DNA of 13,352 nucleotides, taken from the IMG/VR virus record IMGVR_UViG_2667527789_000010. One strand, 5' to 3'. This document shows positions 5,160 to 12,300 of this stretch, piece by piece (position 1 is the first letter of the stretch; each line of letters starts with the position of its first letter). Source of the stretch: a virus (Duplodnaviria > Heunggongvirae > Uroviricota > Caudoviricetes). The notes below the pieces were generated by a model. The model did no database searches. It was given only the letters and a program-made list of their open reading frames with translations, and was not told the DNA's origin. Both the position numbers and the translations under genes were made by a program.

Positions 5160-5411
5160 TTATTCTTCTGCAAAAGCTAAAAAGCCTGCTTTTATTCCGA
5201 TCTCTTTCAGTGCCTGTAATGAAGTGACAAACTCACCTTCGCGCAAGATAAATCCGTCTGTCACTCGACCATCCACAAAATTAATTAACGCAGCCCCATT
5301 CTTTCGCAAACACATAATGCGGTAATGACTAACAAGATTTCCATTTTCAACGCACACAGCATAGAGGCCATCTTCACAAAAAATTTTACGCAATTCTTCG
5401 ATGTTCATCAT
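5160..5411 (-). CDS. Hypothetical protein (83 aa), unknown function
   Basis: ATG at 5409-5411 with SD GGAAGGA. Product MMNIEELRKIFCEDGLYAVCVENGNLVSHYRIMCLRKNGAALINFVDGRVTDGFILREGEFVTSLQALKEIGIKAGFLAFAEE. First gene after the hok terminator. Confidence 0.5.
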   Translation of the reverse strand: MMNIEELRKIFCEDGLYAVCVENGNLVSHYRIMCLRKNGAALINFVDGRVTDGFILREGEFVTSLQALKEIGIKAGFLAFAEE

Positions 5412-5627: not shown

Positions 5628-5783
5628 TTACTCCTCAGGTTCGTAAGCTGTGAAGACAGCGACCTCCGTCTGGCCGGTTCGGATTCGTACCTCGCAGAGG
5701 TCTTTCCTCGTTACCAGTGCCGTCACTATGACGGTTAAACAGATGACGATCAGGGCGATTAACATCGCCTTTTGCTGCTTCAT
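5628..5783 (-). CDS. hokD: Hok-family type I toxin (51 aa), HokD-like
   Basis: MKQQKAMLIALIVICLTVIVTALVTRKDLCEVRIRTGQTEVAVFTAYEPEE: single TM helix plus the conserved Hok C-terminal region. SD AAGGAG lies 9 nt upstream of the ATG at 5781-5783. Confidence 0.85.
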   Translation of the reverse strand: MKQQKAMLIALIVICLTVIVTALVTRKDLCEVRIRTGQTEVAVFTAYEPEE

Positions 5784-5840
5784 AGCCTGCTTCTCCTTGC
5801 CTTTCGGCACGTAAGAGGCTAACCTACATATGTCTAGCAT
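5628..5840 (-). CDS. Mok-like reading frame (in-frame 19-codon N-terminal extension of hok)
   Basis: ATG at 5838-5840 with no SD gives MLDICRLASYVPKGKEKQA fused in frame to Hok. This resembles the chromosomal mok/hok arrangement in which mok shares the hok stop; that arrangement is recalled, not checked. Confidence 0.4.
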   Translation of the reverse strand: MLDICRLASYVPKGKEKQAMKQQKAMLIALIVICLTVIVTALVTRKDLCEVRIRTGQTEVAVFTAYEPEE

Positions 5841-5958
5841 GAAATTGGCCTCAGATTAATGTTAAGCGTCTTGCAGGACGCGTAATGTTAACTGGGGCTT
5901 TTCTCTATCTGCCGTTGGTGTTCATGCCCGAGGCAGATAGCCTCAAGCACCCGCAGCC

Positions 5959-9883: not shown

Positions 9884-10385
9884 AATTCCATCCAGCTTTT
9901 TGTTGGTATTGCTGTCGATACGCAAGTTTGAAAGCAATTGCTTTTTCTATAAGTTCGTCAGTTTCACGATCCACTACGGCAGGATCAGCAAAAAGCAGTC
10001 CGGACTCCACCACATCGCCATATTCTTTGTTTAACCCGGCGATCATGTACGTGATGCTTTTTCCGTCACTAATTTCACGATACAACCTGAAATCATTAAT
10101 CCGGATAGCCTCCATAATTGCAGGCACTAGCGCCGTGAACTTTTCACGCTTATCCCTGGTGTCGATAGCCTTCCAGCGTTCGAATATCTTCACTCGATTA
10201 ACGCCAAGCGCTCGCTGATCAACCGCGCCACCTTCATCTGTGACACGCTGAACATCGATGTTCGGGCGCTCTTTCAAAGCCCAGAATGCTTCAGTGATTA
10301 ATATCGTCGCCTGCTCCTGTGTCATTCCTGGTCGACATATCCAGGCATCCAGAGCCTCACGAGCCTGTTCAGGAGTGATTTTCAT
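9864..10385 (-). CDS. Hypothetical early protein (173 aa) in the cII/YdaT position between cro-like and O-like genes
   Basis: ATG at 10383-10385 overlaps the dicC-like stop by 17 nt, and its own stop overlaps the O-like start by about 20 nt, indicating tight translational coupling. Function not recognised. Confidence 0.5.
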   Translation of the reverse strand: MKITPEQAREALDAWICRPGMTQEQATILITEAFWALKERPNIDVQRVTDEGGAVDQRALGVNRVKIFERWKAIDTRDKREKFTALVPAIMEAIRINDFRLYREISDGKSITYMIAGLNKEYGDVVESGLLFADPAVVDRETDELIEKAIAFKLAYRQQYQQKAGWNYEPSFC

Positions 10386-10596
10386 TGTTCAACCGCCCCG
10401 CCCGCTTCGTCTTACGATATTCGTCATAAACCTTGGGATCATACAGAAGCTCCCCGCCAGATGCCTCCTGTAGACGCATCGCGCGACCTTCAGGAACCAG
10501 TATCCCCCAAGCAGCAACACTTGCCAGTCTCACTCCTGCGGCATTGGCAAGCTTTGTTTTGCTGCCAAAAAAAGTAATTGCGTCAACTTTAAGCAT
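10369..10596 (-). CDS. dicC: Cro-analogue repressor DicC-like
   Basis: MLKVDAITFFGSKTKLANAAGVRLASVAAWGILVPEGRAMRLQEASGGELLYDPKVYDEYRKTKRAGRLNNENHS. ATG at 10594-10596 with SD GAGGGGG; the TTG at 10599 is an alternative start. Divergent from dicA across an operator-bearing intergenic region. Confidence 0.75.
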   Translation of the reverse strand: MLKVDAITFFGSKTKLANAAGVRLASVAAWGILVPEGRAMRLQEASGGELLYDPKVYDEYRKTKRAGRLNNENHS

Positions 10597-10609
10597 CAAA
10601 GCCCCCTCT

Positions 10610-10627
10610 TGTTAGACTTTTCTAACA
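10610..10627. promoter_or_regulatory. 18-bp palindromic operator in the dicC-dicA intergenic region (TGTTAGA-CTTT-TCTAACA)
   Basis: Perfect 7-bp inverted arms with a 4-bp spacer between the divergent repressor genes. Nearly identical to the second site at 11121-11138. Confidence 0.6.
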
Positions 10628-10676
10628 TTATTGTGCGCGGGATATCTAAGTCAAGAAAAATTAGAATTACCTAACT

Positions 10677-11084
10677 ATGGATACAAGAACCCTAGGCCAG
10701 CGAGTTCTGGCGCGACGAAAAGAATTACGCTTAACACAACGAGAAGCTGCGCGCCTCGCTGGAGTTGCTCACGTCACAATTTCACAATGGGAAAGAGACG
10801 AAACCCAGCCAGTCGGAAAACGATTGTTTGCTTTAGCGGATGCTCTGAAGTGCTCACCTACATGGCTAATGTTTGGTGACGAAGACAAGGCACCAGTGCC
10901 TGCACAAGAACTTCATGTGGAAACAGAGCTAACTCCCAACCACAAAGAATTGATCGAATTATTCGATGCTCTTCCATCTTCCGAGCAGGAAGCCTTGCTG
11001 TCTGAAATGCGCGCAAGAGTAGAAAACTTCAACAAACTCTTCGAAGAAATGCTTAAAGCGCGTAAAAATAAATCAATAAAATAA
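10677..11084 (+). CDS. dicA: CI-analogue HTH (XRE-family) repressor DicA-like, 135 aa
   Basis: HTH region LRLTQREAARLAGVAHVTISQWERDETQP. The downstream LFALADALKCSPTWLMFGDEDK and C-terminal EMRARVENFNKLFEEMLKARKN closely resemble K-12 DicA as recalled. Very short leader (candidate -10 TAGAAT at 10662-10667). Confidence 0.85.
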   Translation: MDTRTLGQRVLARRKELRLTQREAARLAGVAHVTISQWERDETQPVGKRLFALADALKCSPTWLMFGDEDKAPVPAQELHVETELTPNHKELIELFDALPSSEQEALLSEMRARVENFNKLFEEMLKARKNKSIK

Positions 11085-11120
11085 CATTCTTTTCAAGTGA
11101 TTAGTTGCGCCCACTCTTTT

Positions 11121-11138
11121 TGTTAGACTAATCTAACA
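11121..11138. promoter_or_regulatory. Second 18-bp palindromic operator (TGTTAGA-CTAA-TCTAACA) upstream of the dicB-operon promoter
   Basis: Same 7-bp arms as the site at 10610-10627. Located just upstream of a candidate promoter (-35 TTGCCT 11147-11152, -10 TAAATT 11170-11175) whose spacer contains a degenerate third half-palindrome TGTTAG...TCTAA. Confidence 0.6.
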
Positions 11139-11146
11139 AAAAACAC

Positions 11147-11175
11147 TTGCCTCTCATGTTAGGTTATTCTAAATT
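11147..11175 (+). promoter_or_regulatory. Candidate promoter of the ydfA-dicF-dicB operon (dicBp-like)
   Basis: TTGCCT, 17-nt spacer, TAAATT, flanked and overlapped by DicA-type operator palindromes. Confidence 0.4.
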
Positions 11176-11252
11176 ACTTTCCATCAAGACACCGCACGGT
11201 GTTCTCAGCAAACAGTTCCGCTACCCCGGCGTTAAGGGGAAATGAGGTCAGC

Positions 11253-11408
11253 ATGGATACTATCGATCTTGGCAACAGCGAATCTCTGGTATGTGGCGTG
11301 TTCCCCAACCAGGACGGCACGTTCACCGCGATGACGTATACCAAAAGCAAAACGTTTAAAACCGAAAATGGTGCCCGTCGCTGGCTGGAAAGAAACTCAG
11401 GTGAGTGA
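11253..11408 (+). CDS. ydfA: YdfA-like small protein (51 aa)
   Basis: ATG at 11253 with SD GAGGT. Product MDTIDLGNSESLVCGVFPNQDGTFTAMTYTKSKTFKTENGARRWLERNSGE. First gene after the dicB-type promoter. Confidence 0.75.
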   Translation: MDTIDLGNSESLVCGVFPNQDGTFTAMTYTKSKTFKTENGARRWLERNSGE

Positions 11409-11409
11409 T

Positions 11410-11985
11410 ATGGATTTCGACACAATCATGGAAAAGGCTTACGAAGAATACTTCGAAGGCCTTGCCGAAGGCGAAGAAGCTCTCAGCTTCAGTGAGTTTA
11501 AACAGGCACTCAGAATAAGAATGTGCTCTCACAATGACGCGGAGCACAAATATGAGAAGCAAAATCAGACCGCAGAAAATTTTGTTCTGGAACCCGGAGA
11601 AACGCTTTTCAAAATTCCCGTTACGTGCCCCATTTGCGGTTTTACATCAGAAGAACTTGACGACTCCTGTAACAATCAGGAAACAACCAAGTATGTCGAA
11701 GATGATACCGAGTGCGCACGAAGAACGATTATATCCACGAGTCCAAACTCCAGGGCCAATAAATCTCACTTTGAGAGGGTGATTAATCCACTCCCCCAAA
11801 CCAATAAAAAAGATGCCGGAGGACAAAAAACCCAATGGAACAACGGGATATCTGTCAAAAAAAGACGTTCCATTAAAGACAAACAACGCAGCGCCAACAA
11901 CTGTAAGCGCTTTATACCAGTAATCAATTTTCATGTTCTTAAGCGGATTTATTGGTGGTTGCGACATTGCTTAATGAATCCTTAA
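11410..11985 (+). CDS. YdfB-like N-terminus continuing as a 192-aa ORF (possible ydfB/ydfC fusion or over-extension); 3' half uncertain
   Basis: ATG at 11410 with SD AGGTGA, 1 nt after the ydfA stop. N-terminus MDFDTIMEKAYEEYFEGLAEGEEALSFSEFKQAL is acidic and protein-like, followed by a CPICG...C...C zinc-ribbon-like segment. The K/N/R-rich tail (from about 11700) overlaps a 106-aa minus-strand ORF that looks like a membrane protein. Confidence 0.35.
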   Translation: MDFDTIMEKAYEEYFEGLAEGEEALSFSEFKQALRIRMCSHNDAEHKYEKQNQTAENFVLEPGETLFKIPVTCPICGFTSEELDDSCNNQETTKYVEDDTECARRTIISTSPNSRANKSHFERVINPLPQTNKKDAGGQKTQWNNGISVKKRRSIKDKQRSANNCKRFIPVINFHVLKRIYWWLRHCLMNP

Positions 11986-12244: not shown

Positions 12245-12300
12245 TTTCTGGTGACGTTTGGCGGTATCAGTTTTACTCCGTGACTGCTCTGCCGCCGTTT
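12245..12300 (+). ncRNA. dicF: DicF small RNA (division-inhibiting sRNA targeting ftsZ) with intrinsic terminator
   Basis: tttctggtgacgtttggcggtatcagttttactccgtgactgctctgccgcc followed by gtttt matches my recollection of the 53-nt DicF sequence. The 3' GGCGG...CCGCC stem plus U-tract forms a terminator. Located between the ydfB/C region and dicB as in the K-12 operon. Confidence 0.75.

Follow-up and report, generated by a model that had tools for sequence, protein, structure and literature searches.

The window analysed here, a 13,352-nucleotide stretch of Caudoviricetes DNA (IMG/VR record IMGVR_UViG_2667527789_000010), carries two near-identical 18-bp palindromes on either side of a dicA-like repressor gene, which raises the question of whether they are operators and, if so, whether one protein reads them at two different promoters. 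A sequence-only reading of the window had proposed that a single DicA-like repressor governs both the dicC/dicA switch and the dicB operon. On comparative sequence evidence, the sites are operators and belong to the P22-type immunity region of a Qin-like E. coli prophage, with a probability that we put at about 0.87. Dual control by DicA is already established for K-12, and one repressor for both promoters is the published model (PMC10448788, citing Béjar et al. 1986/1988); the window holds a new allele of that system. The additions made here are modest: operator and promoter coordinates for a common, divergent non-K-12 Qin allele together with a fourth site, an explicit element-by-element match to P22 immC, and a candidate specificity determinant, suggested by the pairing of DicA residue 22 with operator position 2. 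Their significance is small beyond annotation, the Qin immunity region being the one that controls the toxic division inhibitors DicB and DicF.

The Qin-like prophage and its immunity genes

The window represents a Qin-like prophage of E. coli. Many E. coli chromosomes, that of ATCC 25922 among them, match the 1.2 kb around the sites at 100% identity, and there this region lies in a Qin-like prophage beside rspB and ynfA. Over the entire window, identity to other E. coli genomes is at least 99.9%. The earlier gene assignments hold, with a dicC-like and a dicA-like gene followed downstream by ydfA and DicF (Table 1), and dicC is divergent from dicA across an intergenic region of 80 bp. The genes and their order are those of K-12 Qin, including a homologue of rem, whose K-12 product is an antirepressor that relieves DicA repression (PMC10448788), whereas the DicA of the window is only 57% identical to its K-12 counterpart.

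Several other elements were observed in the window. A 191-aa ORF (11410-11982, plus strand) has a YdfB-like start followed by a Cys-containing tail (CPICG...) and has no Pfam match; in the ATCC 25922 RefSeq annotation ydfB is a truncated pseudogene, with nothing annotated between ydfB and dicB. Two Rfam matches lie on the minus strand, a cspA-type thermoregulator leader (2091-2483) upstream of a cold-shock gene (cspB in ATCC 25922) and a sok antitoxin RNA (5778-5952) at the hokD locus.

Table 1. Genes, promoters and predicted operators of the immunity region (positions in the window)
Feature	Position	Strand	Basis
rem homologue, 83-aa ORF	5160-5411	-	roughly where ATCC 25922 has rem annotated
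dicC-like gene (Cro analogue)	10369..10596	-	84% identity to K-12 DicC; Pfam P22_Cro, E=2.6e-11
Operator Oc (P22 OR1 position), TGTTAGA-CTTT-TCTAACA	10610..10627	.	K-12 Oc alignment; predicted by homology
Candidate dicC promoter, -35 TTGACT (10654-10649), 16-nt spacer, -10 AATAAT (10632-10627)	10627..10654	-	promoter scan
Possible middle operator remnant (Om / OR2 position)	10633..10650	.	right half-site TCTAAG alone recognisable; weak
Operator Oa (P22 OR3 position), AATTAGAATTACCTAACT	10659..10676	.	repeat pair with third site; P22 OR3 alignment; predicted
dicA-like repressor gene, 135 aa	10677..11084	+	57% identity to K-12 DicA; HTH_3
Operator Ob2 (P22 OL2 position), TGTTAGA-CTAA-TCTAACA	11121..11138	.	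P22 OL2 collinearity; predicted
Putative dicB-operon promoter, -35 TTGCCT (11148-11153), 17-nt spacer, -10 TAAATT (11171-11176)	11148..11176	+	K-12/P22 PL alignment
Operator Ob1 (P22 OL1 position), TGTTAGG-TTAT-TCTAAAT	11157..11174	.	motif and repeat search; in promoter spacer and -10; predicted
ydfA, first dicB-operon gene	11253..11408	+	Pfam DUF1391, E=9e-28; annotated ydfA in identical genomes
DicF small RNA, dicB operon	12246..12297	+	Rfam RF00039, 72.5 bits
dicB, ydfD	downstream		annotation in genome identical over the 1.2-kb region

Predicted operators at the two promoters

The two perfect palindromes TGTTAGACTTTTCTAACA (Oc) and TGTTAGACTAATCTAACA (Ob2) and the imperfect copy TGTTAGGTTATTCTAAAT (Ob1), the last of them within the candidate dicB-operon promoter, were confirmed at the positions first reported for them. 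That account was right about these three sites and incomplete in lacking one at the dicA promoter: a repeat search of the window revealed a fourth site, AATTAGAATTACCTAACT, which abuts the dicA ATG and, compared with the third site in reverse complement, agrees at 16 of 18 positions. We follow Yun 2012 in using the names Oc, Om and Oa. With up to three mismatches allowed, three copies of the motif were seen against 0.62 expected per window, a number reached by 4 of 200 shuffles. The third site had been called degenerate, and an imperfect copy is indeed present; since it corresponds to P22 OL1, which according to the literature binds c2 more tightly than any other natural operator, "degenerate" must not be taken to mean "weak".

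In K-12, the DicA operator Oc is TTGTTAGTCATAACTAACAA, a 20-nt inverted repeat over the dicC -10, at which DicA represses dicC and is required for dicA transcription; single-base changes in it appear whenever the region is cloned in high copy, and in an in vivo binding assay one of them removes all DicA-dependent repression (Yun et al. 2012, PMC3441716). The comparison with published operators that the sequence-only reading had proposed bears it out, as window positions 10609-10628 fall column for column on K-12 Oc in the intergenic alignment. This segment is the inverted repeat TTGTTAG-N6-CTAACAA, TTGTTAGACTTTTCTAACAT, which abuts the predicted dicC -10, the last T of that hexamer being the first T of Oc. 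The dicC promoter hexamers match the consensus at 10 of 12 positions in the promoter scan, and the -35 block AGTCAAG is kept in K-12, PPompW and P22 PR in the alignment. Oc covers about -7 to +11 of this promoter, with the predicted transcript start at about 10620 (minus strand) inside it; in K-12 the dicC 5' end has been mapped by 5'RACE and Oc overlaps the -10 (PMC3441716).

On the dicA side, positions 10659-10676 align with K-12 Oa (ATTTAGCATTAGCTAACT|ATG). The dicA -10 is probably TAGAAT (10662-10667) with a start near 10674, judging from sequence similarity, and Oa covers both. In K-12, the dicA mRNA is among five that are leaderless in E. coli and begins 3 nt ahead of the ATG (PMC4681348, text and Table S3). 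A Shine-Dalgarno sequence is absent before the ATG in every dicA homologue examined, and by homology with K-12 the dicA mRNA here (start region 10662-10679) is likely to be essentially leaderless as well. The centre of Oc would then lie near -55.5 relative to the dicA start. Because Oa lies over the presumed -10 and start point, whatever binds it should turn dicA down, and P22 OR3 covers PRM in the same manner. K-12 Om and Oa were recognised by sequence and gave no DicA binding in vivo when cloned alone (PMC3441716). At the Om position the window is cut down to a half-site, unlike K-12, whereas SQA-class loci have a fuller middle site, TCGTAGAGAAACCTAAGT, at -42.

The call of the dicB-operon promoter rests on homology to K-12 and P22; its hexamers match only 8 of 12 consensus positions, which is why the promoter scan did not report it. 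The K-12 promoter reads ATGTTAGCTATAGCATACAAAATCAC-TTGACC-GATATGTTAGTCATGGC-TAATCT (TTGACC-17-TAATCT), and its alignment with the window identifies Ob2 and Ob1 as counterparts of two K-12 sites. P22 PL has its annotated start at the A of CCATCA, and by homology transcription of the operon would begin near 11184, placing the centre of Ob2 near -54.5. Ob2 lies just upstream of the -35 and is followed by AAAAA(T)ACACTTG, as is P22 OL2. The A-tract AAAAAACAC (11139-11147) that separates Ob2 from the -35 is conserved between P22 PL and Qin; it resembles a proximal UP-element subsite, and DicA at Ob2 might also block alpha-CTD contacts.

K-12 Qin shares with the window the 18-20 bp inverted repeat with a TGTTAG core over the dicC promoter, Oa beside the dicA ATG, and a dicB-operon promoter with a site in its spacer. 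It differs in half-site position 7, which is T or C in K-12 and A in the window (TGTTAGA), and in its upstream dicBp site, which is decayed (TGTTAGCTATAGCATACA) where the window has a perfect palindrome. Reg-Seq rated the DicA site for K-12 dicB as low-evidence with its location unknown (PMC7567609), and the present comparisons provide support for DicA sites at this promoter. Béjar's description, as restated by Ragunathan and Vanderpool (2023, PMC10448788), is of three operators in each of two regions. In the window the clear sites number two per region, a third being represented at most by the possible half-site remnant at the Om position, where the SQA class has a fuller site, and by a conserved TTAG island near 11101. 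A third operator of the dicB-operon promoter at the OL3 position is not claimed, because only a TTAG island (11101-11104), conserved in alignments of this allele, marks the place and nothing convincing was found there in other classes.

A close known arrangement outside Qin is that of phage P22. The N-terminal 68-71 residues of DicA match the DNA-binding domain of P22 c2 (PDB 1ADR/2R1J, E about 1e-18), Val33, Trp38 and Glu39 are invariant in nine DicA relatives, and the partner protein DicC falls in the P22_Cro family. P22 c2 binds 18-bp operators of consensus ATTTAAGATATCTTAAAT with the four central base pairs uncontacted, its helix 3 reading TTAAG half-sites and its Val33 packing against thymine methyls (PMC5175364, PMC4267663). 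In the P22 record, OR1 (ATTAAAGAACACTTAAAT) lies at the -10 and +1 of PR, whose -35 reads AGTCAA on the top strand; OR3 (ATTTAAGATGACTTAACT) directly adjoins the c2 ATG, the PRM transcript being annotated from 4 nt before it; and after OL2 (ATTTAAGTTTTCTTCAAA) comes AAATACAC-TTGACC-17 nt-TAAATT, whose spacer and -10 hold OL1 (AATTAAGAAGTCTTAAAT). The window aligns collinearly as Oc, AGTCAAG, Oa|ATG, Ob2, AAAAACAC-TTGCCT-17 nt-TAAATT and Ob1. Both systems have 18-bp sites of 7+4+7 bp with a free centre, a repressor leader of 3-4 nt beside the abutting operator, and one operator upstream of the -35 and one in the spacer/-10 of a TTGNCC-17-TAAATT promoter, separated by 35 bp in P22 (OL2-OL1) and 36 bp in the window (Ob2-Ob1).

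The two systems differ in the half-site, ATTTAAG in P22 and TGTTAGA in the window, in the number of clear sites per region, and in the repressor itself. Window DicA has a short C-terminal domain; HTH_3 was the only domain class matched in a Pfam search of its 135 aa, in which Peptidase_S24, the RecA-cleavage domain of c2, was not found, so that DicA appears P22-repressor-like at the DNA without being a full c2-type protein. DicA is described in the literature as being without the Ala-Gly cleavage site, and induction in K-12 runs through the Rem antirepressor. Glu44 and Glu48, which give P22 c2 its sensitivity to the central operator bases, are replaced by Gln44 and Lys48, and this fits the free drift of the central bases, C and G included, in the operators considered here. 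Phage lambda follows the same logic with cI and Cro, namely divergent repressor and Cro genes, operators over both promoters, a leaderless repressor mRNA and a repressor that also closes a second, leftward-type early promoter, but its operators are 17 bp without sequence relationship to those of the window, and cI has a DNA-binding domain of another family and a cleavable C-terminal domain.

Conservation and co-variation with DicA residue 22

DicA relatives were gathered from reference genomes, phage records, viral contigs and metagenomes, and for each locus 110 bp upstream and 260 bp downstream of dicA were scanned for NNTTAG-N6-CTAANN with at most one core mismatch. Campylobacter matches (L014-L025), which cover residues 82-115 only (19-115 in one), were excluded. 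All four sites were present at the expected places in 104 of the 113 distinct loci with enough flank, whose DicA proteins are 57-100% identical and which span Escherichia, Citrobacter, Buttiauxella, Enterobacter, Pantoea and Erwinia. The spacing stays at 49-52 bp between Oc and Oa and at 34-37 bp between Ob2 and Ob1, even though Ob2 begins anywhere from 38 to 156 bp past the dicA stop.

Among the 56 distinct loci that carry the allele of the window, positions 1-7 and 13-17 of Oc are invariant while positions 8, 9 and 12 vary (centres CTTT, TATT, TTTT or GTTT), and positions 2-6 and 13-18 of Ob2 are invariant while positions 8-10 and 12 vary (centres TCAA, CCAA, CTAA, TTGA, TTAA, TAAA or CAAA). 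Oa is invariant and Ob1 nearly so, centres included, as expected if both sites double as -10 elements. Two parts of this allele are hypervariable, the stretch preceding Ob2 and the five bases that follow the dicB-operon -35. One allele variant from a metagenome contig (L124) has no Oc match upstream of dicA in the scan; the aligned sequence with a 16-column insertion inside Oc may be this locus, possibly an operator-disrupted prophage.

The half-sites change together with the repressor. Where residues 20-22 of DicA are Thr-Gln-Arg, the operators are TGTTAG...CTAACA in every locus tallied, with G at operator position 2, whereas Ser-Gln-Ala, a P22-like helix 2, goes with CCTTAG...CTAAGG operators, with C (occasionally T) at position 2 in Oc, Ob2 and Ob1 alike. 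The switch is concerted at Oc and at the left half-sites of Ob2 and Ob1. Judging from pairwise identities, the Arg22 and Ala22 classes look monophyletic in the N-terminal domain, and the co-variation therefore amounts to one evolutionary event at several half-sites and is not put forward as statistical covariation. That operators about 500 bp apart, at two promoters, change in concert is the best evidence here for one protein reading both, and together with the published K-12 model it supports the proposal that a single repressor serves the two promoters. In phage phiES15, whose repressor is 52% identical and has another recognition helix, an everted CTAAC-N4-GTTAG occurs both upstream and downstream of the repressor gene.

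A near-identical DicC (helix-turn-helix SKTKLANAAGVRLASVAAW) is paired with the TGTTAG class in the window and with the CCTTAG class in PPompW-type loci, which suggests that DicC ignores operator position 2. Tentatively, then, the helix-2 residue 22 of DicA (Arg or Ala) may set operator position 2 (G or C) and so create hetero-immune classes that keep the same DicC, an idea to which we give distinctly less than even odds. If it is true, repressor and Cro read different parts of common operators, DicC using the class-independent core of Oa and Ob1. The repressor-operator co-variation could guide specificity-swap experiments.

Proposed occupancy of the sites and competing explanations

Taken together, the co-variation, the layout and the K-12 model point to one repressor controlling the dicC/dicA switch and the dicB-operon promoter. 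A DicA dimer would bind the 18-bp sites through two 7-bp half-sites with the core TTAG, leaving the four central bases uncontacted. At Oc it would block the dicC promoter and, as in K-12, would be needed to transcribe its own nearly leaderless gene, while at Ob2 and Ob1, the latter in physical overlap with the spacer and -10, it would shut the ydfA-dicF-dicB promoter. Oa would be bound by excess DicA, or by DicC acting as Cro, and dicA would be turned down. Occupancy, relative affinities, cooperativity and the protein using Oa and Ob1 are all inferred in this scheme. DicA looping between Oc and Ob2, 511 bp apart here and at variable distance among classes, is speculation.

Alternatively, only the perfect palindromes could be DicA sites and Oa and Ob1 mainly sites of the Cro-like DicC. 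In the manner of Cro at lambda and P22 OR3, DicC would then shut off dicA through Oa and damp the dicB operon through Ob1. The failure of K-12 Oa alone to bind DicA would fit this, as would the near-mirror relation of Oa and Ob1 (16/18), which depart from the palindromes at the same outer positions; the parts of both sites that are common to the two DicA classes are identical, in keeping with their near-identical DicC, and DicC overproduction is described in the literature as repressing dicA and affecting dicB. Yet one half of each site, the left in Ob1 and the right in Oa, tracks the DicA class (position 2 being G versus C or A), an argument for DicA reading these sites too, and their P22 counterparts OL1 and OR3 are both bound by c2, OL1 the most tightly. 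We consider this explanation possible but rather unlikely as the main one. The two assignments of Oa and Ob1 are compatible, and shared use by DicA and DicC, by analogy with lambda and P22 OR3, is the most economical reading.

That the palindromes act instead as nucleic-acid hairpins, for example as a terminator after dicA or a 5' stem on the dicC mRNA, is very improbable. An 11-bp stem (-9.6 kcal/mol, z = -5.2) can form in the segment 11117-11142, which includes the T5/A5 flanks, and position 17 changes to match the G-to-C change at position 2, which would also preserve a stem. Nevertheless, the Ob2 stem lacks a following U-run on both strands and is therefore no intrinsic terminator; the third site is unfolded (-1.6 kcal/mol, z = -0.1); the predicted dicC start lies inside Oc, so that the full stem would not be transcribed; and K-12 genetics links Oc to DicA binding. 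The hairpin reading was rejected mainly for the missing U-tract and the unfolded third site, and the operator reading is retained.

Perfect 7-4-7 palindromes as such occur about once per random window and eight times in this one, the remaining six (1807, 2871, 5542, 5601, 13003 and 13006) being G+C-rich and hairpin-like, but a chance or mobile repeat without regulatory role has a practically negligible probability, because two palindromes with a common half-site arose in 0 of 300 first-order random windows and because conservation of position, spacing and half-sites in 104 of 113 distinct loci refutes it.
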